A stretch of 64,000 bases of DNA from Amphiscolops sp. MND2022 (taxonomy: Eukaryota). The notes below the pieces were generated by a model. It was not told the origin of the DNA. It saw only the letters and a list, made by a program, of their open reading frames with translations, and searched no databases. The stretch's first letter is position 1; each line of letters opens with the position of its first letter. The DNA is taken from assembly GCA_964187785.1 (NCBI GenBank), contig OZ076417.1:10106001-10170000 (forward strand), read 5' to 3'. The translations under genes and the position numbers were made by a program. Positions 29,173 to 60,481 of the stretch are shown here, one piece after another.

Positions 29173-29186
29173 AGCTTGCTGTGTTT

Positions 29187-29711: not shown

Positions 29712-29764
29712 TTTTCAAACTGACCAACTGATCCTTCCAAAAGTTGAACAATGAATGATGTTGT

Positions 29765-30775
29765 TCAATTTCGCGGTGCTGGTCGGAAAGCCAAAGTAAT
29801 GTTGGTGCGGCCGCAGCTCAAAAAGGGCATCTTTTGACCCATCTCATTGGCAAGAGTTAGACTAATGGACTGGAATTGGGGTTTCACGATCCGCTTCCAC
29901 TGTAAATTTGTGAAACTTTTGTGGTTCACCTCGCCCATAGTGTGCGCCAGAGTCATACTCTTCAGGGGAATGGATCTCAAGAGTGCCGTCTGCGTGTCGC
30001 CCAGCATCTCATTTTGTACAAGATCACAATAGAGAAACATTGTGTGACTACCTGCATTCAAATCGACGGGCCACTGCCCGATTTGTTTCACAACATTGGC
30101 AGTACCTGAAGCTAGTTGGTCAGGTGCTTCAGTTTCGTCACGACGCTGCTGTGATTGGCAATCAATGATTACATCGGTACCCAAAATGTTTTTCAAATCT
30201 TCTGATACTACCGTAATTTTTAGTCCCTCATTTCCCACAATGCAGTTCGACTTGACGTGCAACCTTCTAGTCACACCATCAATTTTCCAAGACAACATGG
30301 AATCATTGGACCGATCGTTTTCCATCAGTTTGCTCTCTTTCTTGCCCATAGCAGCTTTCGTGATGGCTTTCATTATTGAATCCACCGATGGATAACAACC
30401 AGGCTTGAGACGAAGCGTTACAGGTGAACTGTATTTTGGTAATTGAATAAATCCAGAGGGGACTGTCATCGAAATCAAACCTGGTTTGTGATGCCTGGAA
30501 TTTTTTTCTTTGGGCGAAGCCGGTAGTTGTTTCGAGACTGTGAACTGTCCGAGAGTCACGTTTTGCACCATTGCCGGCCATGCAATTTCAACGAGTGCCA
30601 CTTGCCAATCACCAGGCAAGGATATTGTTGTTGGCAACAGCGTCGTGAAGTTTGACAATGTGTTTGCGGGAAAAGTAGCCATGGATGCATTCGATATAAG
30701 GTTCATTGTGAATTCTTGACCATCGCTGCTTGATATGTCCATGTCGCCTACTGTAACGTTAGATTGGTACAACAA
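29765..30775 (-). CDS. Minor capsid protein (penton, single jelly roll), up to 336 aa
   Basis: FTMNLISNASMATFPANTLSNFTTLLP..ISLPGDWQVALVEIAWP and MFLYCDLV..EMLGDTQTALLRSIP match the Polinton penton pattern. Confidence 0.88.
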   Translation of the reverse strand: MLYQSNVTVGDMDISSSDGQEFTMNLISNASMATFPANTLSNFTTLLPTTISLPGDWQVALVEIAWPAMVQNVTLGQFTVSKQLPASPKEKNSRHHKPGLISMTVPSGFIQLPKYSSPVTLRLKPGCYPSVDSIMKAITKAAMGKKESKLMENDRSNDSMLSWKIDGVTRRLHVKSNCIVGNEGLKITVVSEDLKNILGTDVIIDCQSQQRRDETEAPDQLASGTANVVKQIGQWPVDLNAGSHTMFLYCDLVQNEMLGDTQTALLRSIPLKSMTLAHTMGEVNHKSFTNLQWKRIVKPQFQSISLTLANEMGQKMPFLSCGRTNITLAFRPAPRN

Positions 30776-31916
30776 ACTTCACCAGTTCGGGTTCGTAAAA
30801 CTTGCCCTGAATAATTTCGTTATTGCTATCTTTGACAGTGTAGGTTGGAGGATTGATAGTAGGTATCGATGTCACAGTGAACAATTCTTCAGTAAATTGG
30901 ATTTTGTAGCCCCGATGAAAGGTATCAATTTTGCGTCGAATTCGAACTTGATCACCAATTTTGAATTTTGGTTTCTGCGGATCATTGGTATGACAAAGCG
31001 ATACTAAATATGGTACATCTTTTTTTGAAACTGAAATTGGAGCCAACTTTGTCATGCGATTCACGCGGCGATTAATGATTGATACAACTTGGTCGAGATG
31101 GTCAATGTAAGTGTTACTGTCATGTTCATGCATGTACTTGAAGATCAGTGATTTGAGAGATCGAATATTTCTTTCCGCCAATGCAGACTTTGTTTCGCTT
31201 TTCGTGGAATAAATGTCGATACCTTTTGACCGACAAAATGTGGCAAAGTCTCCTGCAAACTCGCGCCCCTTGTCGACCCAAATCTTTTCCGGTTGGTGCG
31301 TTGCACTGCAAATCTTTGGCAATGGTGGCTTTCCGTTTTTGACAATTATCTTCTTTAGAGCTTCCTTACAAGCTTGTGACGTTTTTACTTTGAGAGGCTC
31401 TACCCAGAGATAACGGCTTAAAACGTCTACCGCTACAAATAGATATCTGATTCCATTATTGGTTGCTGCAAGTTTCTGCATGTCGGACAAATCTATCGAC
31501 CAAATTTCATTTAGCCTGTAACTGACAACTTTCAGTCGCACGAAACGTTTCCTAGTGAGTTTGAATTTCGTGTAGGTTTCGCTCGAATTGAGGTATCTAT
31601 CTACATGCGCTGATGGACATTGAGATGCAGCTATCAAGTTGCGTCGGCTTCCAAAAGCCGCTTTGCTCCGCGGATTCGTGTAACTTTCGTGAATTTTTGG
31701 GAACGAAGTAGCATAATTTCGGTCAATATCGTCATTCAGTAGAATTCTACTTGCATTACATTTGGAGCAGAGAAAGTTGTCGTTGTACTCCTTGCTACTT
31801 TTGAGACCGCTGCATCTAAAATGCACCCAACCGCAGATATGACACCAAAGTGAGGGACGTGTTTTGGATCCTTTACCCAGAGAAGCTTGACACGATCCAC
31901 AAAACCAACTTTTCAT
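30759..31916 (-). CDS. int: Retroviral-like DDE integrase with N-terminal PHD-type zinc finger, 385 aa, intact
   Basis: WSIDL (D), AVDVLSRY, IWVDKGREF (D), AERNIRSLK (E), KFKIGDQVRI. N-terminus CGSC...CHIC.WVHFRC...CSKC. Confidence 0.93.
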   Translation of the reverse strand: MKSWFCGSCQASLGKGSKTRPSLWCHICGWVHFRCSGLKSSKEYNDNFLCSKCNASRILLNDDIDRNYATSFPKIHESYTNPRSKAAFGSRRNLIAASQCPSAHVDRYLNSSETYTKFKLTRKRFVRLKVVSYRLNEIWSIDLSDMQKLAATNNGIRYLFVAVDVLSRYLWVEPLKVKTSQACKEALKKIIVKNGKPPLPKICSATHQPEKIWVDKGREFAGDFATFCRSKGIDIYSTKSETKSALAERNIRSLKSLIFKYMHEHDSNTYIDHLDQVVSIINRRVNRMTKLAPISVSKKDVPYLVSLCHTNDPQKPKFKIGDQVRIRRKIDTFHRGYKIQFTEELFTVTSIPTINPPTYTVKDSNNEIIQGKFYEPELVKFVVPI

Positions 31917-31917
31917 T

Positions 31918-32613
31918 CTAAAAATTTGTCAACCACTGACTGCTGCTACCCTGTTGTGTGTCGAGTTTTAGTTTTTTGTATGGAGACAGTCCGCTCGCTG
32001 AGCGAATGTGATGCTGATTCTGACTGCTAGTCTGCCTTGCGTAGGTGTTCGCCAGTAAAAACTGAGGAAGTCTGAGAACTTCAACAAGGGTAAGGAATTT
32101 CTTTGGCAGTTGTTTCGTATTGACTTGCAGTGCTGTGAGAAACTCAACAACACTGACTCCAGTATCTTGCTGATCTAAGTTTATAGTTTGATTTGTTTCG
32201 TCTATCGTAGTTCGATCACAATCTTCAATCTTTTTTAAAATTTGTCTCGATCTTTCAACTTTCCCTCCTGTTACGCCAGATTCTAAAAGATTTGACAAGA
32301 CTTGATCAGATGAGTTTTTGTAAGACTGTTTCGTTTCTGTATTGTTCGAACTGCCCAAGTCCTCCGATTGGTACCGCGAGTTCAAGTTCAATTGAGCGAC
32401 TAAAGTATCTTCGGGCAATTCTTTTGCCGTATTGAACGTTTTGAAGTGTTCTTCTTCAACGGGTTCAACTTTGCTTTCAGTAACTTCAAACTTTGAGAGT
32501 AATTGCTGTTTTTGTTTCTCACGTGCGTCCGGTGTTTTCTCTTGTCTTTTAAGAGAAATATACTCTTCATGAGTGATCAAAATTAGGTCACGCAAGCTAC
32601 TGTTCGATACCAT
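31918..32613 (-). CDS. Polinton hypothetical protein, 231 aa
   Basis: Intact ORF tightly packed between the integrase and the 114-aa ORF. Confidence 0.75.
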   Translation of the reverse strand: MVSNSSLRDLILITHEEYISLKRQEKTPDAREKQKQQLLSKFEVTESKVEPVEEEHFKTFNTAKELPEDTLVAQLNLNSRYQSEDLGSSNNTETKQSYKNSSDQVLSNLLESGVTGGKVERSRQILKKIEDCDRTTIDETNQTINLDQQDTGVSVVEFLTALQVNTKQLPKKFLTLVEVLRLPQFLLANTYARQTSSQNQHHIRSASGLSPYKKLKLDTQQGSSSQWLTNF

Positions 32614-32941
32614 GGCAATATTCCAAATGATTCAGTACGGATGGCAGAACCAATTTCAATAAACGCAAACCCCTCTCTGAGCCCAACACTTGGCGTTTTC
32701 TTTTCAAGGCAACTCGCCGTTTCGAACAAATTTTCTCTAGATTCGTTTTCTCACGTGCAAGGAGCGCCGCTTTTTGTTGCAACCTCTTGTCTAGCTTGAC
32801 TTTCCCTTTTACAACGTTGAAAACACAGTCACAGAAAAACTTCATTATGTCATCTGGACAATGCAAAATGAAAAATCTTCTCAATGTTGGTGAAAATTTC
32901 AGATATAAATCAACTGTATAGTAATTTTGTAAATTCATCAT
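32597..32941 (-). CDS. Small basic Polinton protein, 114 aa
   Basis: FFCDCVFNVVKGKVKL resembles the CECALNxLxGNVxL motif of a small Maverick protein. K/R-rich. Overlaps both neighbours. Confidence 0.75.
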   Translation of the reverse strand: MMNLQNYYTVDLYLKFSPTLRRFFILHCPDDIMKFFCDCVFNVVKGKVKLDKRLQQKAALLAREKTNLEKICSKRRVALKRKRQVLGSERGLRLLKLVLPSVLNHLEYCHGIEQ

Positions 32942-33611
32942 GGATGGGGATGAAAAGTTCTTCTCTCGCGCAATAGAAGTGGGCTGGTTCGTCGCCAGAG
33001 CAATGGGAGCTATATCGCAGGTTCCTACTGCTCCTCACATCCAAATCGATCAATAAATGACCGAAGGCTTCCTGAGTCGCTCTTTTATAGACTTTCAATA
33101 GAGTGGAACGCTCGCCCAGTTGACGTCCCAAAATCCCAATTTGTTCAGAATCCCTTGGACTATTGAAGAGAACAATTTGAGTCACATTCAAATCAATCGT
33201 TTTTGAGTATTTTGACTGTTGGAATAGGTTGTGCCGCAGCACCATCAAATGAATGTTTCGGTGACGACCAGCGATGACCAAGTCCAAAAATTCTTTGCTG
33301 TTAGCAGCTTCGTCATACAAATCATCTAGAACAACGAGAGTTCGTTGCTTCAAGATTTCCCCTCGCTCGACCGCATTCCACTCCAGGCCTTGAATGAGTT
33401 CCAAATGGATGTTCTTTACCAGGCATTCTGCTTCAAGCTTTTTATATGCTTGTTGATAGTGTTTATAAAAGTAGAGTATTTTGTCGAAAACAGGGCGAAA
33501 CATTTTTTCTTGGTTGCAAATCATTCTCCCAATCAATTGTGTTTTTCCTGAACCAGCTGGTCCCACCACAGAAATGAAGCAATGAGGAGACGTACTGATT
33601 CGCTTATTCAT
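32910..33611 (-). CDS. FtsK/HerA (A32-like) genome-packaging ATPase, 233 aa from ATG 33611
   Basis: Walker A GPAGSGKT, Walker B LVVLDD, arginine-finger region AGRHRNI..VLRHNLFQ. Confidence 0.93.
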   Translation of the reverse strand: MNKRISTSPHCFISVVGPAGSGKTQLIGRMICNQEKMFRPVFDKILYFYKHYQQAYKKLEAECLVKNIHLELIQGLEWNAVERGEILKQRTLVVLDDLYDEAANSKEFLDLVIAGRHRNIHLMVLRHNLFQQSKYSKTIDLNVTQIVLFNSPRDSEQIGILGRQLGERSTLLKVYKRATQEAFGHLLIDLDVRSSRNLRYSSHCSGDEPAHFYCAREELFIPIHDEFTKLLYS

Positions 33612-33961
33612 GATTTTGGGCCTGGTAAGATATGACCGATACAAGCTGAAAGAATCGCTAAAATCCCGCTAGAAACTTTGTTGTCGTTTTCACAAAGAGT
33701 TAGGAAAAGAATACAGAACGTGAAAACTGCGATGAGTATGAAGTAATGTAAAAATACCAAAACCAGAGACCTCTCCACTCGGGAATCACAACAGCAAAAA
33801 CTATAGGGTGGTCTCTCGTTGTCTGTTTCATCAAATAGGATTCTTTCAAAGTTCGGAATTGATAAATTTCCTTGGTCGACTTGATCCTCCTGATCGCCTC
33901 GATTGTTTATCGTCAAACTGCTGCAATAGCCACTTGTATGGCTCAAATCAGGGCTGCTCAT
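33608..33961 (-). CDS. Small two-TM membrane protein, 117 aa from ATG 33961
   Basis: CCC motif followed by two hydrophobic stretches (LVLVFLHYFILIAVFTFCILFLTL; GILAILSACIGHIL). Its TGA overlaps the ATPase ATG (ATGA). Confidence 0.7.
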   Translation of the reverse strand: MSSPDLSHTSGYCSSLTINNRGDQEDQVDQGNLSIPNFERILFDETDNERPPYSFCCCDSRVERSLVLVFLHYFILIAVFTFCILFLTLCENDNKVSSGILAILSACIGHILPGPKS

Positions 33962-34044
33962 AACCTCGTGAATGTTTGAAATTATCAGGTTTCTGAACGT
34001 CAGAATGCAACTGAACAGAACAAAATTCAAAGTACAAATGAATG

Positions 34045-34455
34045 TCAAAAAGGAAATGCATCGAAATGCTCTCTATGGAACAGTTTGACAAATATCCAAT
34101 ATGATATTCCGGAGAAATGTCCAAGTAGCATGTTGTTACGGAAAGACTGAGCCTTGGTTACAGTGTACACGTATCCGGGTCCGACATCTTCAAAGCTGCG
34201 CATGTATCCATATGCATCATGGAAAATTGCATGCAGTCTCAAAATTTTGGAACAATTCAGGTAATTGTCCAGCTTACTATCGCCTGGCCCTATTTTGCCA
34301 CCAAATGGTGCTTTAGCGTTTACTTCCTTCAAGTCAACATTCTCGTCTATATAACGACAAACTGCTAAGAAGGCATTTTTAGTGGTACTGTTTTTAGGAA
34401 AGCAGTAGTTAACTGAAACAAAATTTTCACAAATTTGTCTGGCTGAAAACATCAC
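34045..34455 (-). CDS. Phospholipase A2-like protein (parvoviral/adintoviral PLA2X type), ~136 aa
   Basis: KIGPGDSKLD (Ca-loop-like GPG) and HAIFHDAYGY (catalytic HD..Y). Confidence 0.7.
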   Translation of the reverse strand: MMFSARQICENFVSVNYCFPKNSTTKNAFLAVCRYIDENVDLKEVNAKAPFGGKIGPGDSKLDNYLNCSKILRLHAIFHDAYGYMRSFEDVGPGYVYTVTKAQSFRNNMLLGHFSGISYWIFVKLFHREHFDAFPF

Positions 34456-34509
34456 GAATGTTCTAAAAATTTAAATTAGGAGTAATCCGACTGTTTCCAA
34501 AATGTGTTT

Positions 34510-35343
34510 TTACAGAAATGAAGTATCGATTATAGTGTCTTCATTATAAGGGGAAAACAGTTGAGGGCTCGAAGTCGTGTTGTCGATCTCTTCATCCAGT
34601 TGCAGTGGTTGGTTCATACATTCGAAGCACATGCATTGAGCATTTGAGTGTCCCAAGTCGATATCCAAAGTTCTACTGTGCTCCGTTACAAAAAGTCGTC
34701 CGATACCGCGTTGTAGAAGTTCAATATAGGGTATTACTGTATCCTTGAAAGGCGCATCGCTCTTTTCTAGTTCCACTAGCTTTCGGAACACGTATAGAGC
34801 CTTTTCCTTATCGGTGCAGTCACCCAAGGAATTGTGTCTATCCAGTTCCCAAACGCTGTTGAATTTGCATCCCAAACTCTCAGTCGTTTTCCGATTCAGC
34901 ATGCTTTTCATTCTCTCGCCTTCTATAACGAACGATCTGTTACTAAAACTTGACATCTCGGTTCTCAGAAAGTTTTCAGGGTAGGAAACTGTGAGAAGTC
35001 GAACTTTTGCCCATTGCAAATTGGACAAAACTTTTGGAATAGTTTGTTTCAAAAATGTTTCAGCGTTAGTGCACTGTGGTAGGTACAGCAGAAGATGATA
35101 ATGATTGGGAGGCAACGCTTGACAAAACTCATCGAGCGATCCATTACTGGGAGCATCTTGTTCGTGTACTTTTCCAATAAATTGACATTTGTGGGAATTA
35201 GAGAGTATTTCCAATAATTTGGAGAGACTTGTTGGTAATTCTAAGGTGTCTTTCTCGTAGACATTACTGTAGGCTTCGGATTCTTCAGTTGAGTACAAAA
35301 GCAGCCAAAAGTTACACGGTATTTCGCGAAACACTGATGTCAT
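34510..35343 (-). CDS. Hypothetical protein, 277 aa, with HUH-like motif
   Basis: Intact ORF, first gene from the right TIR. VHEQD...PPNHYHLLLY; C-terminal CMCFEC. Confidence 0.75.
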   Translation of the reverse strand: MTSVFREIPCNFWLLLYSTEESEAYSNVYEKDTLELPTSLSKLLEILSNSHKCQFIGKVHEQDAPSNGSLDEFCQALPPNHYHLLLYLPQCTNAETFLKQTIPKVLSNLQWAKVRLLTVSYPENFLRTEMSSFSNRSFVIEGERMKSMLNRKTTESLGCKFNSVWELDRHNSLGDCTDKEKALYVFRKLVELEKSDAPFKDTVIPYIELLQRGIGRLFVTEHSRTLDIDLGHSNAQCMCFECMNQPLQLDEEIDNTTSSPQLFSPYNEDTIIDTSFL

Positions 35344-35856
35344 ATCGGTCGTCAGGAAAAAAGAATGGCAACTGCTTCAGAGAAAGTTTAAATTATAATG
35401 ACGATTTCTCTTGTCACAAATATAATCAATGATAATCATGGAAGATTCCTTTGGGAGTCGCCAAAAGAATTTTCCATGCATAAAAGAGTTTATAGTCGTA
35501 AATGCTGCCGATCCTGTTTTGTTTTAGTTTCGGGAATCAAAACTCTTCTAAATTTATCAATTTCTTTTTCTTGGAATTACCTTTATCACCAGTGCTCCTG
35601 CTACCAGAGGACAAAAGGTTAGACGTTTCTGATTGAATATTTTGCTGAGGAGAAGTACATGAAAAGAACTTGTTTTACCGATTCGATTTTCATATACAAA
35701 TTGTTTGCTTTGATTGAAAGTTTGTTATCAGTTTGCCTATGTAAAGAATTGTGAAAATGAACTGTAACCTCTCTAATGTTGAATATTAGGACCCTGATTG
35801 TAGATTAGGAGCTCTAGGACACCGATAGCTGTTGAGAATTTGCATGTTTTAAGATT

Positions 35857-35958
35857 AGGGATTCATAATTGGCTCTAACAGTTCAGGGATTCATAATTGG
35901 CTCTAAGCGCATCTAAAGGATTCATGATTGGCTCTAAACCCCCCCTTTCCTTACTACT
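35857..35958 (-). repeat. Right TIR of the Polinton
   Basis: Ends ...ctaaaccccccctttccttactact; contains three repeat units. Confidence 0.93.
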
Positions 35959-42677: not shown

Positions 42678-43086
42678 TGTGATGCCGTGATGCACGTCAT
42701 CAAGTTTTTTCATAACCTTGAAATGTATCTAACCTCGTGACCTAATAACCTCAGAGACGTCACATCATTTAGAAGTTGATACTTCGTTATTAGACTGCTG
42801 ACATTTCTTGACTATTTCATTAAAGACCTAATCTCATTGATGTCATCTTAGCTAGATTTGAATAATAATTAATCTTAGTAATCAATGAAGTAATTCTTGT
42901 AACTAACCCATCGGAAGAATAACTCGCATCTTGTATTCCAGAAGACGTCTCATCAATGAGAGAAAGACAGTAAATCTGAGATCTCAGTCCTCTAGCTAAT
43001 TAGTTACTTTGTTTAGGACTTAAGAAGTTCTTATGTATCTATTGAAAGATCTAAAGATAAACATAACCCTATTTCTAAACAGCTCA
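42678..43086 (+). repeat. 5' LTR of copy C (409 bp)
   Basis: TGTGATGCC...CAGCTCA; aligns over its full length to 60024-60477. Confidence 0.92.
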
Positions 43087-43088
43087 TT

Positions 43089-43106
43089 TGGTGCGATCAC
43101 GAAGTA
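43089..43106 (+). promoter_or_regulatory. Primer-binding site TGGTGCGATCACGAAGTA
   Basis: TGG two bases after the LTR end, complementary to a tRNA 3' CCA. TGGTGCG fits tRNA-Gly-type acceptor ends (inference). Confidence 0.8.
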
Positions 43107-43109
43107 TAT

Positions 43110-43160
43110 TCTCTCTCTCTCTCACTCACTCTCTCTCTCTCTTTCTCTCTCTCTCTCTTC
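43110..43160. repeat. (CT)n microsatellite in the leader
   Basis: ctctctctctctcactcactctctctctctctttctctctctctctc. Confidence 0.9.
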
Positions 43161-43278
43161 CTTCCATTCCACAAGTTCTCTGTTTTTGCCTTTCCTTTCT
43201 TTTCTTTTCCATACGCTATTTCTTTGTTCGACACACAGTCTCTCCACAACTTGGTATTATCTACAGCTTCTAACGCCA

Positions 43279-43620
43279 CGTCCCAACCAATTTTCCTTGA
43301 AAATTGATTCGTGTTGGTATGGTTCTGACCACGTAACATACGAAACTTCTGTCAGTCAATTTCTTTAACATTCCAACCACTTTTAACAGTGATACGTGTT
43401 GGCCATTTCTTTCCGCTCCAACCACAAAAAGTGTGATTCGTTTTGGTAAATTGACCTTCGTTCCAACCAATACACTAGTGATGCGTGTTGGTAGAAATAC
43501 TTCTCCGTTCCAACCACTTAAACAGTGATTCGTGTTGGTTTACTTCTAGACGTTCCAACCGATACGTGTTGGTTTCTTCAAAAGTGGTATCCAACAATTC
43601 CTGCCAGTGTAATTTTGGTT
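43279..43620 (+). repeat. Array of 6-7 stem-loop units CCAAC-CAC-loop-GTG-ATNCGT-GTTGG in the leader
   Basis: Units start at ~43279, 43369, 43414, 43459, 43506, 43551, with a degenerate one at ~43587. Confidence 0.85.
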
Positions 43621-43917
43621 CTAGCCGTTTTGGAACAACTCTTTGTGAGTTGGCACACTTTTCTTCAATTCTTCTGCTTCTTCAATACTGCTACGGGTAT
43701 AGACACAAACGTATCAGAAACACAATTATGTTACAAATAGTCACAAAGTTCTTAAAATCAAAAGTTTATTACAAATATATGATCGAGAACTATATTACAG
43801 ATCTATTATACTACATAGAACAATTTATATAATATCTTACATATTTTATTACACATTCTATTACAACAAAACACAGAACAAACAACTTTGTAGTACAGTA
43901 CACAACTATCTCAATAA

Positions 43918-44088
43918 ATGCCTTCAGCCGATGATCTTGTTAAGTTCTTTATATTGCTATTGTTTTTCTTTGCATTCATTGGTGGTCTTGGTCTACTATT
44001 TGATCAATTTTTAGTTCCTTTCATACCCAAAGTCGCTTTATATATATCTTATGATACTTTGCTCTCTCATACCCTATGTAACAAATAA
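43918..44088 (+). CDS. ORF0 of copy C: 56-aa hydrophobic peptide upstream of gag
   Basis: MPSADDLVKFFILLLFFFAFIGGLGLLFDQFLVPFIPKVALYISYDTLLSHTLCNK*; FDQFL.PFI.K is shared with copy B. Confidence 0.55.
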   Translation: MPSADDLVKFFILLLFFFAFIGGLGLLFDQFLVPFIPKVALYISYDTLLSHTLCNK

Positions 44089-44265
44089 ACATTACTTCTC
44101 CTTTGTACTATTCTTACTATTATGGTCCAAAATCTTTTTGAAGAACAATTCTTTCCATATAATAAGTATTCATCCAGACCTTAGTCTCGTTCATTACTTT
44201 TATCCTTTATTCAAAAAGTACATTTCAAAACACTAAAACAAATCGATGTGTTTATATGTTACACA

Positions 44266-47200
44266 ATGTGTCCATCTCCATTTCAATCAACTACACCTTA
44301 ACATAGGAACATTCGTTCTCTTACTCAAACTGTTAAACCATTTTTAAATAACATTATACTTCAATACACAAATCCTTCTCCATTTGAAACAGAAGCAAGT
44401 TCTATACATACAATTCCGTTGGTAAGAGAACATTTAGACCCATGTTTATATTACATTCGATACGAAACATTAGATACCAATACATCTCAAAACCCATTTC
44501 AAATCATTTTCAACCCTGTTCCTAACAATAATTCTGGAACATGTTCTAGAACTATTTATCTACAAAATAACTCATTTCAAATTGATGTTTTTGTTACATA
44601 TCTGGACAAACTAAAAGAATACAATGAAAATCTATATCATCCTATATACAGATCTTCTCATTTAGAAAGTCTAAGACAAAAGTGATTATTTCGAATTGCA
44701 CAATATTGAACGACAAAACAATCATCACTATTGGTTACAACAAGATATATTACAAATAAGCCAGTTTCAGTACACGTTTTTCCAAAATATAATACTTTAT
44801 GAAGATATTGTACCTCAAACCAAAGTTTACTCTCAACTTCTATTAAAACTTTTTAGATTCAATTATCAACACTTGTGGGAAGAACAAGATCAACCTGCTT
44901 CTAAAAATTTTCCACAAGCTTTAACACATACAGAACTTCTACCTTTCATCATCCAAGACGGAAGCAAACACCTTTTATACAAAGATCTTACACAACTGCA
45001 TATGCCGTATTTTGAGATTATATCATATGATCATACGTTTTATGTTGAACACTCTGAAACATCTGATAGTAGACCTTATGTATCTTCCGAAATAACTATA
45101 GACAATCCATATTACGATGATGAATCGACTACATCACAAAATGAACAGATTGAAACATGTCATGACCCACAAGAAACATTTAATGATAAACATCAAAATT
45201 CTGATGAATTTTTAGAACAAACCCAACAAAATCAAAATACACTTACTTTTGATACTACATCAACAATTCAAGATGAAAGTAATACAGATACCCATACGGA
45301 TACCCGTAGTGTTTCACAGTTACTACGAACTCCAACCTTTTAATTTTCCTACAGACAAAATGAACACATTAACAATGATAATGAACTACTCAAGTTTAAT
45401 TTGATGCCTCAACTATAATATCACAAAATACTGCTAATACTCTACCACCAATGATACCACAACAAGTCACACGATCTCATGATCCACCTCCAATACCTCT
45501 TCAATTGTGTACACATAATACTCCTCATAACTCTCCACAACAAGGTTCTTCAAAGATGAATATTGCACAAAATGTTTCTCAATTTCAATCCCAACAAACC
45601 ATTCTGTGTACACCATCATACACTCAAGCTTCAACCTCTAAAACACAACTATCAACCTTTACTACAAATACAATTCATACAAATCCACAAACTTATACAA
45701 CAACTTCTAGAACGCTATCGAGACCTCCATTACCTCTTATTCCAAACAATTCACTTTCGTACAGTCTATCAAGTACAAATATAAACAATATTCAACAACC
45801 TAAACAGTACCTCATACACAATTGATTACTCTTCAATTGGATCCATTGTCCACTTCTCAAATACCACGTATTCCTTCGATTAATATACGAAATAACCCAC
45901 ATATTTACACAACCAATACCTTTTCTACTATCAATACACAAAACACCCACAACATACCTCCGTCATCAAATGTCAATTATCATACAATACTTTCTGCTAC
46001 ACTACCTCTTCCCATAGTATCAAATCCAACATAAAAAATTCCTCTGCTTCTATATCTGAACCTATAAAACCCTTCGATGGCTTAGATCATGAATATACAC
46101 CCGAAAAATTTTTACAGCACATTGAAGCACGTGTTACATTTTCACTTGGTTTACAACCCTCAACTGAAGATGAATATAAAATCTGGCACGCCCGACGCAT
46201 GGTTTTCATACAATGCTCTTTTACTGGTACACCTCTCAGTTGGTACATTCGTCTCAATGACACCTACCAACAAGACTGGTCCGCTTTTGTACAAGCATTC
46301 CAAAAACAATTGTCCTCACAAAAAATGCATTTTACGCTCAAGTTGAAGCTATCACACTTGTCAAAAAAGACAATGAGACAGTTCGCCATTTTGCACCAAA
46401 AGTCCAACAACTAATTGAAAAATGCTGGTGCAATGAGAACGCCTCAACAATAAATCCTAAATTTAACGAAATTTTCACCGAAGGATTACCAAAAAGTCTT
46501 AAAGAGTTTGCTAATAAAAGACAAGTCAAACACACTTTTACTGTATTAGAACCCTCAATACCCTTTCTTTCATTTGTTAAATTTGTTGATGCTGAAGATA
46601 TAGCGAATGATAAAATTCGTACACATGATCTTACTTTAGAAGTAAATACTTTTACTAATCAATTACAACCCCAAACTATTGAACAACAACCAGATCAACT
46701 TGTGTTTACTCAATTCAAAGATCCAAATAATAAATCGAAACCCGCATACAAAAAATATTGTCCATACTGTCACAGAACAAATCATTCTATTCCATCATGT
46801 TTCGGAAAACACAGAGACGATGATGATAAAAGAGAAGCCTATGCAAGATCATAATCTCAACAAAAACCTTTTGTACAATCCTTTCCTTGCAACTCAAATA
46901 CAAGAACAAACAGAAAAGATGATAGAGAAAACGAAAAATACAACCGACAACGTAGTTGAAGTACATCACGAATTAGTTATCATACAAAAAAATTCCTCAC
47001 AGAACAGATACCGCTCTACATCACGAGATCGAAATCACTATGACAGAAGAACTACTCCTCAACATTACACACGCTCACGATATGATAACTACAAACGAGA
47101 TTCTAGATTGTATCATTCTTTTTATAGATCATACAGATCACCATATAGACACGATTCTCGTGCTAGATAGAGATCACGTTCTTATTCAAGAGACAATAAT

Positions 47201-47400
47201 TTTACAAGATATATCTCTTCATTTAGACCTCCTTCAAGACCAAGAGATTTTAGATATTTTAGATCCCGCTCGCACTCTAATACAAGGAACAAAAGTGATA
47301 CAGTAGAAACGCAATCACAAAATGACCCTATGAAATTTGAAGTACATATGTTTACTCCTACAGAAAGGGCTAACGCTTTGACACCAACCAGTTGGTTCTA
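44266..47400 (+). pseudogene. gag: gag of copy C: long N-terminal region, capsid domain, CCHC knuckle, RS-rich tail
   Basis: IKPFDGLDHEYTPEKFLQHIE...LSWY...QDWSAFVQAF (46060-46310). YCPYCHRTNHSIPSC (~46757-46800). RSRSRSYSR region (47000-47290). Confidence 0.88.
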
Positions 47401-50400
47401 CCCATTATAATTACCACAGAAAGACATACCAAAGATGATCACGCATCCAGACTAAAAATTTCCTTGCTTTTAGACAGCGGTGCTTCTATTTCTGTACTTA
47501 ATTATCCAACTTATATTACAATTGCAAAACTTCTTAATATAACAACAATAACACTACATACAATTCCTTCAAAACGTTAACAGTTGCTAACCAAGCAGAA
47601 GTCCCTATATTACACTCTGCAACCCTTACTTGGAACACAACTATTGATGATCATACTCGCCAATTCATTCTTCCATTTGCAGTAGCTGACATCAACTATA
47701 ACATTCTTGGCACTCCATTTTTCGTAGGATATATACAAAATATTAACAAACAAGACTTTACATTAAAGTTTAAACATCATTCAAAATACTTTCCTAATCA
47801 CACAAAAATCACGTCACTCCTATCCAAAGAAAATCCATACTTCTTGTACATTCATAGAATCAATTATGAAAAACAAGTTCATCTGAAACCTAATTCATCC
47901 AAGATTGCTAATTTTCCTATAAAATCCACTAAAACCTCTATTTTACTAAAACACCAAAATACAAATTCTTTCCTATAGTACCTCATACCTATTTTTCTAC
48001 AAAGTTTCCTACCACATTTAATTTCATCGGAACTTTCACAAATGCCAAACCAGATACATCCGCTACTATTATACAAAAGTCTACAAATCGTGTTCCTTCT
48101 CTTCCCACTGGAAACATTGGCTACATTGAAGTTTCTATCACAAACGAAAAATTTAAATAATATCAAGTACATGACATTAACTCTTCAATACACAATGTTG
48201 CACATACATACCATCCTGAACAGAACCTATTGTACCTACTAAAAATGCTTCTCCATACAATGAGGATACATCTTAATCTTCACAATTTTCACTGGACTAA
48301 ATTTATATGACAAACTCATCTTTAATATCACCAATAACTAAATCCCTTTATAATGTTCAGCCTACTTTTCATTATACAAACCGCGCCTCTCTCCTTCTCT
48401 TCCTTACAGTAAAAAAACCTCAAATTTATAAAAAAATTCAACTTTCAATTTTCTGAGTTAACAGACACTGAATATATATCACTTTGTAACCTATTAGTCA
48501 ACCACAAAAGTTGTTATGCAACACACAAAAATGACGTCGGAAAAATTTATACTCTATTTCGTGTAAGACTCAAACCTAACGCTCAACTTATGACACAACG
48601 TTCTTGTAAAGTTCCAATACTATATCGAGACAAACTAAATGCTCTTCTTACAGAAATTGACAAACACAATATCATTAAACAAATAGGTACTCACTCGAAT
48701 CCACTTATAATTATCCCAAAGTAAGACTCTTTCAAATGTAATGTGCATTAGACCCACGAAACCTCAATTCTAATTCAGATCAATCTGACGAATCTTGGCC
48801 TTTTGAACCTCTAGCTCTTCAACTTGCACGCCCAAACAAAAAGTACAAATGTGCAATAGATATTAAGTATGCATATGCTCATACTCCTCTTGATGAAGAG
48901 ACAATCAAACTTACGAGTTTTTCATCAGAAGACAAACTTTTTGCTTTTATACAACGCTTTCAAGGTCTCAAATGTCTTTCTAAATTTTTTTTACAAAACA
49001 AGGGGCTTCTTTCTTCAAAACACTGATTGACCAAGGTTTTGCTTTTGTGTACATAGTTGATATATTACTTCTTTCAAACTCTAAAGAACACATGTTCAAA
49101 CTTATCGAACAACTTCACATAATTAGCACCAAAAATCTCAAATTGGCTCCGGAAAAGTCATTCTTTATGTTACTGAAAGGAAAATTTCTTGGACATGAAA
49201 ATGGTTATAACACTATGAAACCTATTCACTCAAAAATTGCGGCTATTCACAAAATAACATCTCCTACTGGTAAAATTGTCTTTATGAGTTTCATAGGCTC
49301 ACTTAACTTTCATACAAAAATTATTGAAAAGTTACACAATAATCTCAAACTTTTTTACAATTTTATACACGAAAATACTCCATGGAACTGGACACCTGAA
49401 CATGAACGTTTTTTACCAAATTAAAATTTTCTCTTACATCTGATACTGGACTTACAATACTCAATACAAAAGATCCATTTTGTTGTTACCGTCGATGCTT
49501 CTTTAATCGGACTAGGTGCAGTTCTCTTCCAACTTAATGAAGAAAACAAAATGAAAGTTATTTCGTACAACTCTAGAATCAAAACCCTCAAGAACAAAAA
49601 CTTTCCACACTTGACCGTGAGTTACTCGGTATTGTAACGCACTACAAATTAACGACTTTCTCATTATTGGATCTCCACATCCAATGCATATCTTTACAGA
49701 CCACAAACCTCTTTAACATTGTTTTACAAAAATATGCAATCTTAGTCCACGATTCTATTGTGCTCAAATGAAGTTAAGTAAATTCTCCAAACATAAACTA
49801 ATTCACACATCAGGAAAAAACCTTTCTGTTGCTGATATGCTCAGCCGATCATTTCCAAAAACTGAATTCTAAATTAACCTACTTAAACATAAACAACTAC
49901 CTTCACAAATTGTCTCTGCTATTTTACAAAACAATACTCTTAAACCTATTCATTACTTGATCAAACACGAAGAAGTGCTACCTCACCAAAAACACGATTC
50001 TCATCCTATCCCTGCAGATTATGGTACAGATCAGTTTTAAATACGTATTAATGACAAAAGTAACGATGTCATTGTTAAACCTTTAGACTCGTTTACCTTC
50101 AAATCTGTTAGTCCTTTTCAATCAAAATTCAAAACACCCATCAAAAAACTCAATAAATCTCTTCACAAACAATCTGTTCTACTCAATGATACCGACATCA
50201 TCAGTGATGATGAAGATCATGTTTACACAGGATTACCACAAGATTCAACACTTTTTTACACCTGACACTACTATTACTACGGAAAACTTTTCTACAATTA
50301 CCAATCCAAAAACTGATACTCCTTCCACAAATGCAATTGAAACATAACATACTATTAAACTTGCATTACATTGTTCACAAATCATTCAGTTTTATAATTG

Positions 50401-52260
50401 ATCTTTCTCTAAATACAAAAATTTTTTCCAAGGTTTTGACCTACCAGACGCTCACTCCTTAGATATAATACCTCTTAAACAACAACAGTCACAGGACCCA
50501 GTACTCTAAACAGTATAGTACTGGATAACACAAAACACCAAACCAGTTTCTTCAACATCTCAAATTATTGGTACTCCATTTCTACAGGCTTATTATAAAA
50601 TCTTCTAATAACTTTTCATTGATGACACTACCAATCTTATTAGTCTTTATTCCAAAACAAATGCTGATTTATTCACTAACAACTTTAAACTCGTTTTTAC
50701 AATATGCCTTCCATTCAGACGCTTCAAAACCATTTTCAACAAACTCCATGACCATTGTCATACTGGTATCAAAGTCACATACAACGTTTTCTCACAATAT
50801 TATTATATTCCTTACCTTGAAAAATGGCTTTCCATTTTTATACATGACTGTCTTGGATGACAACGTGACAAACAATTCAATCAATAAATCCGCAAAGTTC
50901 CAGTACAATCTTTCTCTGAGCATGCTCCTTTTTTCAATTGCAGATTTTCAATGGACACAAGAGGTCCTATTTACCCACCTTCACAGAAAAAATCTTACAT
51001 TCACGTCATAGTCGATGCTTTTAGTCTTTTTGCTGTCACTGTTCCCCAAATCTAACAACGCTAAAACTGCTGTTAAATCACTTTTACATTAATGGATAAT
51101 AAAGTTTGGTCCACCCATTTACCTTGTCACTGACCGATGGTCAGAATATTTTAACACTGATATGGCACAAATTTGCACTCTTATGGGAATTCGTCATTCT
51201 CCTAGAACACCCTATGCTCCTTGAACAAATGGCATAGTTGAGGTACAGAACAAAAATCTTGGCACACATTTGCGTATGTTTTTACAAAATACACAAAAAG
51301 ATTGGGCTCATCAAGTCAACATATACGCCTATGCTCACAATTCGCAACCTCTCTTCGTGTGTTTCCCCTCATGAAATTGTTTTTCACAAACGACCTCAAA
51401 TTCCACTAACCTTTGACATAAATTTCAATAGAATTACCAACAAAACCTGTATTCCACAATATTGTTCTTAACTATCCGAACATTCTCATTATGATAAATT
51501 CGACCTCAAACCATTCTTTTATAGAACACTCTCTAAATCTTTTCCACAATGGTTTCTCGCTGTAGAAACAGCTCTGTTACAAATTTATTTTATTGTATAT
51601 GACTACACACTCCGCAAAATTAACTCCCAAGCCTAAATTACAAAAACCTATCACGAAGGAAAACCCCTTCCTCTTGGAACTTTTGTATTAAACGCAACTT
51701 TGCACACGTTCCCTTTTCAGACAAACCTAAGTTGTTTCGGATTGGAACATAAAAAATGATCGATTGACTTTCTGATGTAACTTATGAAATTCTTTCACAA
51801 GATGGTTCCACATTTCATATTCACAGAAACTACTTAACACCTTATTAACCAAAAGAATCACGTTTTTACCATCACCTTCGTAACTTCCTGCGTTTTTCGG
51901 ACTCTATTCAATATGACATTCCAAAACCCACCAAATATGCCAATTATGATTCATCCCCATTCATTTCAGATGACACACATTCAGATGATACATCTTCACA
52001 AGAAGATCTTTCTTCACCACAACCTAATCCATTACCAAATCCTACACTTTAAGACAACTCTTCTTCTAATGACTCAGGATTCCAATCAAAAACAAAAACT
52101 CTTCAACCTAATCCTTCGTATAGAACACGTCATCATTCTCAAAATGATATATCAATTCCTCATAATCCCAGTTACCGTCAAACTAAAACCCATTATAATC
52201 TGAGATATCAACCACGAAAAGATAATCGACTCTTCATACCACAAACTAAACTTTTAAAAT
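47400..52260 (+). pseudogene. pol: pol of copy C: protease, RT, RNase H, integrase (many frameshifts and stops)
   Basis: LLDSGASISV (PR, ~47465). AIDIKYAY and YIVDILL (RT, decayed YIDD). TVDASLIGLGAVL and TDHKPL (RH). HDHCHTG...HDC (IN zinc motif), SMDTRGP, FGPPIYLVTD, VEVQNKNL. Confidence 0.92.
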
Positions 52261-52299
52261 CCTGATCACTCGCTCAAAAGTTTTGAAGTATTCAAATTT

Positions 52300-53608
52300 T
52301 AAAATCTGAACAGAAACTCTCATACTGGATTCTCCATTCGAATCTCCTCCTTCAGCTACGAGTCTACCTTCTACTTTAGAACCACAAACACTTATTTCAT
52401 CTCAACCTCGCAATGTAAACACCTTAACTTCGTCCAAATGACCCAAATCACATATAGTAGATATATCTTCCACAACATCATCTATTACTCTTTTTCCCCA
52501 AACAACTTCAAACCGTTCAAACCGACCACCTATATCTGAAATACCTATTACTCCTAGACCTCAACTACTACCACTTTCAACATCAGTATTTGATAATCCA
52601 AATTATATACCATAACCAGAAACTGTAGCAAGATTTATTAACTACAGGCAACCTACTTCTTTTAAAACAATAACACAACAACCAAAACTCGATATTGTAC
52701 ACATACCTAAAATTGAATATCCTACTCTATCTTCATTACAACTACCGTCTGAATCTGAATCTTCCACACAATCTAAACTATATCCTCGTGTAAAACCCTT
52801 TCGTAAACCATCTACTTCTTTGTTTAACCTCCTTAAAACCACTTCACAAGAACCCCAATACATGCCATCCCAAGAATCTCGAAGTTCTATTTGGGTTCCT
52901 TGACATAGATACAATCTTAGACCGCTTCCTACACGCAGACTTAGTACTGATAGCTCAACATTGCATCTTTCATCCTTATCAAATAATTCTGCTCTTGGAC
53001 TTATTAGACAACACGCTCAACCCCTTTCACCAGGATCAAATACCACTCACTCATCAGACTTTGTTCCACAATATTTTACATCTGGTATAGACACTGCATC
53101 TTTACTCTCGTCTGACGTTCAAACCGCATTTCTCTCTGGTAATCACTTTTCTGAAGTACTCATTCCTACTCCTGTACCATCGCACGTAAGATTTCCGGAA
53201 TATTTTACATCACAACATTCCAGACCTCCTACTCCAAACTTCGCTGACTATCCACTACGTGTTGACGGCACAACTATATACAAACCTCAAGCTGATCCTC
53301 GATTTCCTGTTCTTACAGAACGCTTCATTGATAACAACGATACTCTTTCCACTAAAAGAATAGAAACAGAATTGAAAAGTCTTCAAAACCCCAACTTAGA
53401 ACTCAAATTTGAAGTAACAGTAAAATTCAATAGTTTAAACCCTTATCCAAAATTTCAAGTTGCAAAGCTTGAACACAAAACTACTGCTGCTCCATTTATA
53501 GTAACGTACGCTGTATTTCATAGCAACCCAGACCTTCCTGATAAAGACTATGGCAAATCTGTTTTCTGTAACCCATATTCTGGACCTAAATATACTACTT
53601 CTTTTTAA
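52300..53608 (+). pseudogene. ORF-X: accessory ORF between integrase and env (open part 52961-53608; 5' boundary approximate)
   Basis: DYPLRVDG..IY.PQ, FQVAKLE.KTT and PFIVTY..F...P..PD..Y.KS.F.N.YSG.KYTTSF are shared with 3560-3880 and 21430-21564. Confidence 0.75.
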
Positions 53609-53614
53609 CACAAC

Positions 53615-56250
53615 ATTGCTCCCCTTTATAACAAATATTCTCTTTCGTAGTCAAATGCTATTTCTATAGAACTAGCTGATACTGACAGCTATCTTCCATC
53701 TGACGATCCTATTATTACAAATCTTATGGTTTCTCATTATGACTGTGCAAAACAACATAACCTCCGCCAATTTTAATTATCAAATGTAAAACAATGCACC
53801 GAAGACCCGGCCAACGTAGACCATGCTAGTGTTAATGCTAGAGTTTACGTTCGTGCAAAATCTAAACGAGTTAAAGCATTCAATTGGGAAGCTTATGTAA
53901 AGAACGAACGTAAAATATGTTTTCAAGGTCAAGTTAAAAATAGACGTGTTGATAGAACTGTATGGAATCATAACACATTGCCACTCCGTGTTACACTTGA
54001 CCCTTTAGAATGTAAAAACTTAATTAGACATCTCAATGGTACGAATAACAAAATATTAAACATTTATAACAAAATTTTTACACTTTTTGAAGATCATTAT
54101 TTTCAAGAACAATTAGTACGATTTTGAACTCTTTTTACTGTATATAAATTGAACACAATGTATACTGGCACATTTACATTCATGCCTGCCGATAAAACTT
54201 GGCTTTATGATCTTTAAGAATTTCCCTTCTCATGTGTCCAGCACATTATCAATTCGAAGTCAGTCTCGTCAGTTGGCAACTCCAAGTTTCTGAAGTAGAT
54301 GTTACATATGATGATACTAAAATTGTTATGATCATTGATGGTCATACACTATCATGTTCCTTCGCTGATGGTTTCCGTAGACCAACCACTAAAACGCTTT
54401 ACACTTTAGTTTAGTTTAGTGATCACTTTTGTCTCATTTTTAAATTACAAGGTTTTATTGGACAAGTGACAAAGACTGAAGTCATATATTGGATTGAAAC
54501 TGATTCTTTCGTACACTCTTTAATACCAAATAAATCTGATACAACATATGGCATTAAGGGAACTCGTTTCCCCTATGCTCATGCTCCACATACAGAAAAA
54601 CCACATAACCCAAGTCTTTCACGCTTCGAAATATTTCCACTTGCACAAACTTTTTCTAAAAAACCAGAACCTGTTTATGCAACACAATATCCCGACTTTT
54701 TTGTTTCATACACCAATGCTTTCAATATGCATACAGGACTACCAAATCCTCATTCAGTAATAAATGAATACTTTTCAAAAAAGTTAAATTTAGATCCTTA
54801 CAAAATTCAATATGTCTTCCCAGCGCTCAACGTTTCAAACACCTCTGTTACAATAGACTATGATGTCCATATAAATTAAAAAATAGAATATTGAAACATT
54901 CATGTTTTCTGCTCAATGACAGTACAAGAGTTAAATACTCTTCATACAGTATGCGAATTAGAACGCAATCAACTTACAGTACTTGCAATGTTAGTACAAA
55001 ACCCACAACTTGTCGGTTTTCTTTTAACAGGAAATCGAAGTGTTTTTGTTATACGTAGAAAGCTCTTCTGCTTGGCTCTATAGTTGTCCACCTTTTCTTT
55101 CACCATTATCCAAAGCTGATTGTTGTTTCGATCGTATACCTATCCACTTCAAGGATACTTTTATGTACGTTGATCCTATAACACGACAAACCTACGACTA
55201 TGCTGTTCCGATAACATGTGATAATAATCCACGAAATATTATTGAACTTGATTCCGATTCGGATGATCAAGACTTTTACATTCTTAGACCTAAACCAATT
55301 AAACGAAAACCACCTCTTATGTTTACACCATCTCAAATTACAACTACAATATGACCTAACACAATTACAGCACAAGACGCTGTATATATTCTAATGCAGT
55401 GCTTGATCAATTTTGGAACAGAAATTGTTTCTCGAAACATTCTGACACAACACTTCAAGTACTTGGAAAAACTCTTAGTTATTCATTCATTTCCATCAAT
55501 ATTCCAGAGTATTCAGATTCACACAATTTTCAGAGTAATCCTTACAATACACTTCGTATTGGACTACATGATAAACTCCTTTATTTAACCCCCTTTTTAC
55601 ACCTAGATGGTTTTCTGACGCATTCTTTGCATTATTTGGATATCCATGTTGTATCCTTACGCAATGTGAAAATTATTTTTCAACATTCCGTATCATGCAA
55701 ACTATTTTGACACTTCTTATAAAATTATGTAAAACAATTTTGGTAAAACATAATCTCAAACAAAATATTATTTTCTTAGTTTCATCGCATGTTTTCTTTA
55801 TTAATATTACAGCTGACATGATACATGACTTAAAAGATTCTCATACCCAAAGACCACTACCACCCATTAAATGTTCCCATCAACTGTCAACCATATTTAA
55901 AAACACTTTAGATGACCCGTCTGACAACTCACTTGATCCAACAAATACCTCAACTAAACCATCTAGAATTCATTCACCACCACCTTTCTACACAAAACGT
56001 CCAAAAAGACTTCAAATATGACACGATTTAATTATTCCCAAAACGAAAAAACTCTTTATATCAATCTATTAATAGTGACAAAAAGACCGGCAATGCTTCT
56101 ACATTACAAGATTCTATATTACCTTCTTATTCTACTGTCAATTCAAATCCCAATGATTATCCTTTAAATTCGCAATCTGTTAATGATGAAAATTAAAGTC
56201 CTGTCAAAGTGTATTCTAAAACAAGGTACTCTTTTACTCCGCCATCTTTT
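53615..56250 (+). pseudogene. env: env of copy C, chuvirus-G / gB-like (class III) glycoprotein
   Basis: MVSHYDCAKQHNLRQF..NVKQCTE; VCELERNQL (54949-); WLYSCPPFLSP...CCFDRIP..FKDTFMYVDPITRQTYDYAVPITC; TM-like segment near 55600-55750. Confidence 0.85.
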
Positions 56251-56499
56251 TAGAACTGGTCCTTCTGACTTTCTCCTTCTCGCACGCACTATAGACACTA
56301 CCTCTCTTGATTAAATTCGTCATCACTCTAGAAAAACACCTCTATTTTTCAAAAACTGAGCTCCTTCCGCCGCTTGAAATAACACCGATTATTGAAATAA
56401 CTGTACATTGCCCAAATAACTGTACGGTAAAAGTCTGTGTACTTGCTCCTTCTCCTAAAACTCAACACGAATCAACTCGTTAGTACAAGTTTGCTTCAA

Positions 56500-57790
56500 C
56501 AAATAACACCTAATAATGACACAAGCGCAACCTAATATACAAAATCTACAAAGTCAATTTGAACAACCAACAAATAATATTGATCTTACATCTCACCCTC
56601 TGTTTAACGATTCTCCTGGGCTCTTTATTGAAGCCATGGATCCAAATCCATCCGTCGTAACTTCTGAACAAAGTTCTTCAGAACAAAATTCCTCTAATAT
56701 TGAACAAATTGAACATCAAACTACTCCTGAAAAACAACGAACACCTCCAGAAATGAAAAACTATGAACAATCTCGTGGAACACCCCCACCTGCCAAAGAG
56801 ATATATGAAATAATGAAAGATCCTGCATTTCTTTCTATCCACCAATATAACCTTCCAAACTTTAACTCTCTACTAATAGAGAGGATCACTTGGTACCAAT
56901 CCTCTCTTACGATCGTTTCATCTTCAAATCGCAACTTACTTCGTTGTACATGCATCCTACCGACTATACCTTCAAACTATTTGACAAGAATCAAGACTTT
57001 TTCACCTCTTTTGCTTCCAAAATAATGTCGCCACTCTCTGCAACTCAATTTTCTTCGCCCGTCGATATTCGACTTGAAAGCGGACGAAAATGATCCGACA
57101 TTCCTCTCTGTTGCACAAAAATTTACTCATCATCAAACATACACGAAATTCTTTCAATACAAAAAGCCGCAAAACTACACTTTTGCTCAGAACAAGTATA
57201 CTTCTCCTTTCACTATGACCAATCTATATACGATTGACCACTCTAAAATTACGGGAAGTCTCAGAAACTTTGATCCCATAAAACAGTACTTCTGCCTTCT
57301 TCCACACAATGATACTTCTCGACCACTGATAGTACCTCAAGAATCTTCCTATGGTAATATTCAAACCGCTCATCGTGTTTAAACATCTTGTCTCATTACC
57401 TCTTGATGATAAAGATACATCTCATTATACCGCTCTGTCGAAACAATCATGCTCATATAACGAACTACTCTTCATCTCTGCAAAAGTCATTTCCTTTATG
57501 GTTTAATCAAAACAAAACACAGAACACAAATCTACCCATTTTGAACGTCATAGATCTCCTTCTCGAACTTCACAAACTACCACTGACAAAATGACTGTCA
57601 TGCTTAGTCTCCACACTCTCAAAGATATGACCGAAAAACTTGAACCTTACAAAAGACACAATGAAACACCTCTCACAACTTTCACTAGACTTGTAGACCA
57701 CTACGAACTTCCAAACTCTTTCCAACCTTGAATCGAAACTCTCAGATAATCAATCAATCTTCAGAAGCTTTTCAATCTACTCCTGGAGTA
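56500..57790 (+). pseudogene. ORF-Y of copy C
   Basis: ORF pieces 56516-57025, 56890-57093 and 57074-57382 are homologous to 38200-39584. Confidence 0.75.
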
Positions 57791-60023: not shown

Positions 60024-60477
60024 TGTAATGCCATGAAGCATGTCCTCAAGTATTTTCATAACCTTGAAATATATCTAACCTCGTGATCTAAAAACTTGAC
60101 AGACGTCACATGATTTAGAAGTTGATACTTCAATATTAGACAGCTGACGACGTTTCGTGACTTTTTCATTATAGATCTAATCTCATTGATGTCATCTTAG
60201 ATAGATTTGAATTATACCTAATCTTAGTAATCAATGAAGTTATTATTGTAACTAACCCATCAGAAGAAAATCTCCAATCTTGTATTCCAGAAGACTTCTC
60301 ATCCAAGAGAGAAAGACAGTGAATCTGACATCTCAGTCCTCTAGCTAACTAGTTAAAGTTAAAGTTGAAATAGATAAAGAGTTAACTCAAAGAAGGACGA
60401 CTTTGTTTAGGACTTATGAACTTCTTATGTATCCATTGAAAGATCTAAAAAACATAATCCTAGTTCTAATCAGCTCA
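60024..60477 (+). repeat. 3' LTR of copy C (454 bp; 45-bp indel at 60355-60399 relative to the 5' LTR)
   Basis: TGTAATGCC...CAGCTCA followed by TSD CTTG. Confidence 0.92.
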
Positions 60478-60481
60478 CTTG

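Follow-up and report, generated by a model that had tools for sequence, protein, structure and literature searches.

The repeated structures described here lie in the leader of a full-length but decayed env-carrying Ty3/gypsy element at positions 42678-60477 of the window, by which we mean the whole 64,000-nucleotide stretch of DNA that was analyzed; all features of this element given below are on the + strand. Specifically, the element begins with a 5′ LTR (42678..43086) and ends with a 3′ LTR (60024..60477). The 5′ LTR has TG...CA ends and is 79% identical to 60024-60481, and the 4-bp target-site duplication CTTG stands before it and again directly after the 3′ LTR, so that paired LTRs, TG...CA ends, and CTTG on both flanks mark the whole as an LTR element. 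The primer-binding site (PBS) follows at 43089..43103. Its 9-nt start is common to young copies of the three related families considered below, and the window copy departs from it at position 9. This PBS pairs with tRNA-Arg(TCG), the sole tRNA tested, only if 2 extra nucleotides are accommodated as a 2-nt bulge, and the primer may be another tRNA or a processed tRNA. Between the PBS and the array lie a (TC)n tract (43110-43158), which is longer here than in sister copies, and a conserved short motif (43226..43247) that is shared with sister family 2 (86% over 22 nt between a family-1 and a family-2 leader, E=0.005). The array itself is located 190-570 nt 3′ of the PBS, upstream of gag and outside the LTRs. 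It is followed, before gag, by a small hydrophobic upstream ORF (43918..44088) for which a Pfam search returned no match and which has counterparts in young copies of families 1 and 3. The decayed gag-pol extends over approximately 44263..53950, as judged from Retrotrans_gag and RVT_1 matches below cut-off and from tblastn to the family proteins. Part of a decayed env is recognizable at 55028..56018 through a match, also below cut-off, to the viral fusion glycoprotein PF24664 (E=5.8e-6), which we take to be of the gB-type class. The window copy is a decayed fossil, and it is unlikely to function.

With respect to coding capacity, the domain order assigned to gag-pol was taken from the young copy L072 and not from the decayed window copy, and reads Retrotrans_gag, RVT_1, RT_RNaseH, Integrase_H2C2, and rve. 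In many young copies a single open frame of about 2640-2734 codons encodes both Gag and Pol, uninterrupted by a stop or frameshift at their boundary; young family-1 Gag has a single CCHC knuckle and a tract rich in Arg/Ser at its end. PF24664 is found above cut-off after pol in young copies of all three families (E=1e-19 to 5e-27). Two further ORFs of 473-495 and 159-301 aa, for which a Pfam search gave no match, are present 3′ of env in the young copies of family 1 and of family 3 (L184:4430-6734; L186:5355-8404). The leader of a young family-1 copy is ~1.25 kb long, and small hydrophobic ORFs of 37-48 and 78-79 aa recur between array and gag across the families (window 43918-44088; loci L055, L061, L072, L164, L171, L183, and L099), the C-terminal motif of the first being similar in family 1 and family 3. 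These ORFs recall the sORF-encoded transmembrane proteins of Drosophila retrotransposons described in the available text of PMC11952523, and stand here beside a full env. An open frame of ~203 codons that overlaps gag in young copies was considered as an accessory gene and rejected; it has no Pfam match, is mostly devoid of a start codon, and has the appearance of an Arg/Ser-codon shadow.

The window contains two other related elements, whose best genome matches both lead back to family 1; their leaders are absent, and the 20 kb upstream carry no unit of the array. An apparently intact Polinton/Maverick-like element (22205-35958), with terminal inverted repeats, a protein-primed polymerase, a protease, an integrase, and a packaging ATPase, is inserted in a further decayed member of this retroelement group. 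A tandem repeat of two 69-nt copies (15658-15795) and an inverted repeat with 55-nt arms (61659-61782) are probably parts of other transposons. Outside the window, locus L031 is a tandem tRNA array of 17 genes with a ~174-nt period, 16 of which are Arg(TCG) and one of which was called as Pro(TGG).

The first-pass annotation had reported 6-7 bulged stem-loop units, mostly 45-47 nt apart. Six unit starts were confirmed (43283, 43373, 43418, 43463, 43510, and 43555), with spacings of 90, 45, 45, 47, and 45 nt; the aberrant first interval conceals a decayed unit of a second sequence type (unit 1b, 43321..43355), whose CTGAC/GTCAG outer stem is degraded here (43325-43355). Unit 1 (43279..43317) consists of a 4-nt flank, a 5-bp outer stem, an 8-bp inner stem, and a 6-nt 3′ bulge, and its sequence is that of a CAA/TTG variant, as had been proposed. 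Units 2 (43373..43402) and 5 (43510..43538) are intact representatives of the CAC/GTG type. The general pattern offered for all units (CCAAC, CAC, a variable loop, GTG, ATNCGT, GTTGG) is exact in this pair (43373 and 43510) but in only 2/6 units, one outer pair being broken in unit 3 (43418..43446) and one inner pair in unit 4 (43463..43491). Unit 6 (43555..43572), which had been described as a unit without an inner stem, is indeed altered, but as copy-specific decay and not as a designed variant; it is the remnant of the GACG-tetraloop unit of sister copies, from which 10 nt have been deleted. What had been counted as a seventh unit (43591) is actually part of a terminal three-way junction (43584..43656), the long arm of which holds a circularly permuted bulge unit, with the same 6-nt bulge placed on the 5′ arm. 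The original inventory was also incomplete, as sister copies show eight modules, two of which (the CTGAC/GTCAG unit and the permuted junction unit) had been overlooked.

The array is beyond chance expectation. A shape descriptor admitting any 5-bp and 3-bp stems with an ATNC[GC]T bulge between them gave 5 matches in the 64-kb window, all within the array (3 inside units and 2 joining neighboring units), whereas 2000 dinucleotide shuffles of the region averaged 0.002 matches and never exceeded 1; the test is partly circular in that the bulge letters were derived from the array.

Across the genome, a first look yielded 1470 candidates for the family-1 array region. Exact CCAAC-type units number 326 and exact CTGAC-type units 3347, with 0 hits genome-wide for the reversed-pattern controls of both. 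The module order in sister copies begins with unit 1 and its long inner stem, continues with 1-3 CTGAC/GTCAG units with an ATTCCT bulge and 1-5 CAC/GTG units, and closes with one unit combining a CGCA/TGCG stem and a GACG loop, followed by the terminal three-way junction. Family-1 arrays present 5-9 repeated bulged modules, variable in number, ahead of the GACG hairpin and the junction. The module types are interchangeable in number among these arrays, and the CTGAC/GTCAG unit occurs 2-3 times in sister subfamilies. Neighboring units are 42-48 nt apart in 119/132 fully paired cases. The GACG loop is exact in 68/79 aligned copies, the rows having been picked by likeness to the GACG unit, and the single unpaired U of the terminal junction is kept in 78/79 rows. 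When GACG units with a different first base of the outer stem were sought by pattern, only 10 decayed family-1 units came up, and no amplified non-autonomous derivative retaining the array was present among 18 rows without a gag start. With 298 fully paired units from 80 arrays, the outer stems include CCAAC/GTTGG (173), its fully compensated counterpart CTGAC/GTCAG (72), and GCAAC/GTTGC (12), and the inner triplets are of four types (CAC/GTG, T(G/A)C/GTA, CAA/TTG, and CGC/GCG); the parser admits paired units only, so these counts give variety and not rate.

In terms of folding energy, the whole array of the window copy is no better than shuffles (z=-0.22). Among the 80 arrays the median z is -1.04, with negative values in 72 of them but values below -2 in only 13 (12 shuffles per array). 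When the eight window modules were folded singly, only two had z below -2, and one (unit 4) took another register. Unit 1 of the window folds as drawn (z=-2.75), as does the terminal junction of a young copy (z=-2.28), the corresponding value for the window copy being -0.05. No Rfam model matched the array, whether in the window or in the one young locus examined per family. A comparison of plus- and minus-strand folding energies as evidence of strand (plus lower in 12/80) was dropped because the C-rich plus strand biases it. Folding energies are thus modest, and the claim for structure rests on covariation and architecture rather than on stability.

For covariation, 94 unique family-1 arrays were collected, 85 of which gave the 3′ block and 79 of which remained after removal of near-duplicates. 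Paired cells amount to 91.2% over these 79 copies, and the covariation score is 0.119 versus 0.088 for shuffled data, with 0/500 shuffles as high under a shuffle control that ignores kinship. The first-pass annotation had named covariation across copies as its check: pair-count covariation does exceed the shuffles, but RNAalifold returned no consensus pairs from the 79 decayed rows, a blank attributed to post-insertion decay of the copies that make up the alignment. The signal is concentrated in one helix (AU48/GC17/GU8; AU42/GC31; CG64/UA5). On a gag-sequence tree covering 61/79 rows, the switches of three pairs in a single helix fall in separate clades, and one of them passes through a visible U-G intermediate, found as a U-G sister on the tree. 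A fourth swap, from C-G to G-C in an outer pair of unit 1, is present in 10/10 members of one clade (51 rows). These four independent compensated events are the only ones mapped in family 1; most stem pairs show no two-sided change, and sequence conservation alone therefore explains them.

Clade-fixed stem changes keep pairing in 9/10 cases over 114 stem columns, the lone exception looking like CpG decay, as compared to only 101/340 for scattered stem changes. Clade-fixed changes number 52 in 96 unpaired columns and 10 in the 114 stem columns. A fourth inner pair, which is outside the descriptor, is formed in 76/105 units (TA 36, AT 18, and CG 17), whereas shuffles average 44 and 0/10000 are as high, the units being related by descent; the fifth inner position is paired in only 20/76 units. 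The 105 CAC/GTG units contain 68 distinct loops, which bears out the earlier observation that loops and spacers vary while stems and bulge hold. G-U pairs are frequent on the plus strand (40/72 CTGAC units and 16/86 family-3 units), which favors plus-strand RNA as the structured form. All comparisons are within a single genome and its three families, as scans of metagenome contigs and viral contigs found no relatives. Judged by covariation among copies, unit types, and families, the array is under selection for RNA structure, as had been suggested; covariation was found and the array recurs in other copies, the two points whose failure the first-pass annotation had named as grounds for giving up its proposal.

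These results bear directly on whether the array could be a neutral minisatellite produced by slippage or template switching, its palindromy being incidental. TRF does report a 45-nt period, the folding energies are modest, and some units of family 2 are identical recent duplicates, all of which such an origin would explain. It would not account for the clade-fixed compensations, for loops and spacers that turn over while stems and bulge hold, or for the independent structured arrays of two other families described below. The covariation and clade results largely refute this neutral reading already, and we find it hardly credible.

A further feature of the family-1 units is the conserved flank of four bases (SGTT) before each outer stem. 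Flank position -4 tracks bulge position +5 (C-G 160 and G-C 56 of 240), and in the permuted terminal unit GGTT stands directly before the stem, opposite the ATTCCT bulge. As read from the sequences, pairing of flank and bulge inside a unit suits all five unit types, while pairing between neighbors fails at two junctions. This suggests, as a weaker inference, that bulge positions 4-5 and the 5′ flank of the same unit could form a 2-bp mini-pseudoknot; the correlation may rest on a single evolutionary event.

Protein searches identified two further high-copy families in the genome, with 49-70% pairwise identity in the Gag capsid region, family 3 being represented in this comparison by a decayed protein. 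A protein that may represent a fourth family found nothing close in the genome, its best match being at 53%. Presence in related families had been proposed as another check, and both sister families do hold arrays at the equivalent place, built from other modules. The 20 leaders of family 2 share the PBS start and carry as many as seven parsed units, most of them spaced by 37-60 nt, in which the module is an RTTTA-by-MA (5x2) internal loop and the outer stems include ACTG/CAGT (50), ACCG/CGGT (31), and TCTG/CAGC (31). One family-2 unit has a palindromic TCCGGA loop in 18/20 copies. The array closes with a compensated version of the family-1 three-way junction (13/20 exact, 5 unparsed). The long arm of this family-2 junction (loci L124-L143) is extended and highly conserved, with a hairpin loop that could pair upstream as a possible pseudoknot, and it includes an 'ACTCCT' resembling the family-1 bulge.

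In family 3 (20 loci), the best-preserved copies carry four to six units with a spacing of about 52 nt. Every unit forms a full three-way junction with a single unpaired U, the same shape as at the end of the family-1 and family-2 arrays, and the third helix of the 86 parsed units is CAGC/GCTG in 52 and CGAC/GTCG in 33. No invariant palindromic loop was found in family 3, and neither sister family showed the GACG loop in its arrays. The family-1 strand occurs 0 times in 20 family-2 loci and 0 times in 20 family-3 loci, and the family-2 strand 0 times in the family-1 leaders of L054-L073. By these comparisons, the layout is conserved across families while the module is replaced.

The persistence of the junction shape across families whose repeat motifs are mutually absent is difficult to reconcile with a DNA-level role, in which the units would be enhancer or insulator sites with palindromic symmetry for a dimeric DNA-binding protein. 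Some units do contain what we take to be Runx- or HRE-like words. Moreover, according to the available text of PMC8872304, Drosophila ZAM, Tirant, and accord (TERM motif), some of them env-carrying, likewise have tandem repeats in the 5′ UTR, and such errantivirus repeats bind protein as DNA. Those repeats were assayed as DNA motifs, whereas the units here show compensated base pairing (PMC8872304). A TERM or insulator element is recognized by conservation of primary DNA rather than of pairing, and the array instead displays compensatory changes, stem letters that vary freely when both sides change, G-U pairs common on one strand, and one circularly permuted unit. We regard a DNA-level role as very unlikely.

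The position of the array raises the possibility that its structures act in reverse transcription, through primer placement, pausing, or strand transfer. The PBS is nearby and fits its one tested tRNA only imperfectly, and the 5′ pseudoknot of Ty1 is needed for reverse transcription while a packaging role for it could not be shown (PMC4974528, available text). The start of the array, however, shifts between 75 and 240 nt 3′ of the PBS depending on the family, and why priming should involve repeats of varying number is not obvious. A function in reverse transcription is highly improbable on these grounds.

Nuclear export or cytoplasmic localization is another function for which repeated bulge or internal-loop modules would be suited, here through multimeric binding of an adaptor. 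In such a scheme the array would be a CTE- or RRE-like element, bound by a host protein or by the product of an extra ORF, that frees unspliced genomic RNA from the nucleus. Env-carrying elements probably require both spliced and unspliced RNA, and the two post-env ORFs of families 1 and 3 offer potential partners. On the other hand, known export elements are usually in env or near the 3′ end, and a conserved host exporter should hold the motif constant, yet the three co-resident families have three folds. The accessory ORF that the first-pass annotation had put forward as binding partner acquired no link to the array in this analysis. Export is rather unlikely on balance. The turnover of folds between co-resident families is better explained by an element-encoded partner than by a conserved host factor.

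We lean, with modest confidence, toward the array being a multivalent packaging/dimerization signal of the genomic RNA. A role in packaging, dimerization, or protein binding agrees with where the array lies, with its multiplicity, and with the GACG loop, and GACG tetraloops are described in the available text of PMC516450 as contributing to the packaging of retroviral RNA and to dimer stability. Every module would be one candidate site for the nucleocapsid region of the element's own Gag, with its CCHC knuckle and Arg/Ser tract, so that several Gag molecules could nucleate on the leader via the repeated modules and repeated sites would confer avidity and family specificity in packaging. The GACG loop might join two genomes by kissing, and a self-complementary loop might likewise aid dimerization.

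The same leader, with its small upstream ORFs, also makes a translational role plausible. The array could govern translation of the single gag-pol frame behind this long leader by IRES-like recruitment, shunting, or repression; the ~1.25-kb length and the small hydrophobic ORFs in all three families speak for this. IRES elements usually adjoin the start codon, however, and the array ends ~260 nt before the first small ORF and ~600 nt before gag, while a freely changing number of modules is unlike one folded IRES. Translation control has also been raised for repeated structural motifs (PMC8206606, available text). We consider a translational function distinctly unlikely.

Returning to packaging, a broader and more tentative reading, which we regard as possible and somewhat doubtful, joins the three families. 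Co-resident errantivirus-like families may tag their genomes with arrays of family-specific folds (a bulge mini-pseudoknot, a 5x2 internal loop, and a single-U three-way junction) in a fixed leader slot, with modules amplified or replaced and the layout kept. This would constitute a packaging-specificity code that changes with Gag, and the family-1 module would be an undescribed compact fold. Selection of LTR-retrotransposon RNA for packaging has mainly been studied in yeast Ty1 and Ty3, and even for these the available text of PMC4974528 leaves the signal incompletely defined. Three related co-resident families, each with a covariation-supported module in a regular array, amount to a natural swap experiment, and short RNAs and matching Gag domains of the three would allow cross-binding to be measured directly. 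If the packaging reading is true, repeated-motif packaging signals extend from RNA viruses to retrotransposons, and a packaging signal is seen changing its fold while its layout stays.

With regard to known elements, such arrays in Ty3/gypsy leaders were not described in a literature search that covered mostly titles and abstract openings, with subscription papers outside it. The metazoan env-carrying Ty3/gypsy 'ancient errantiviruses' have the same gag-pol-env order, LTRs, PBS, many young copies, and a fusion glycoprotein (PMC13524379, available portions); 'UTR' and 'stem-loop' have 0 occurrences in the available main text of that paper, and two PBS words were unmatched in its supplements. 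The 5′ RNA of Ty1 and Ty3 contains a pseudoknot and palindromes implicated in dimerization, Gag binding, and reverse transcription, and the available text mentions no repeated modular array of the kind found here (PMC4974528).

Lineage-specific repeated structural motifs (RSMs) are presented in the available text of PMC8206606 as a hallmark of encapsidation signals. The coronavirus RSMs (SL5 gUUYCGUc; Embecovirus agc/guAAu) are likewise several short lineage-specific units and are proposed to be multivalent sites for capsid protein (PMC8206606). The arrays described here share both traits, having several copies of a short structured unit and a motif type specific to each lineage. They differ in belonging to an element unrelated to that virus class and in arranging their motif, which is an AUNCSU bulge, an internal loop, or a three-way junction, as a linear row at regular intervals, and the likeness of AUWCGU to the coronavirus UUYCGU is probably superficial. 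The gamma- and alpharetroviral and Maedi-Visna psi/dimer linkage regions similarly place a structured leader with a conserved GACG hairpin between PBS and gag (PMC516450, available text). Unlike in retroviral psi, the GACG loop is lost in the window copy and unseen in sister families 2 and 3, and repeated bulged modules precede one GACG hairpin and a junction in a Ty3/gypsy element. With these differences, the array would probably work like retroviral psi or an RSM packaging signal.
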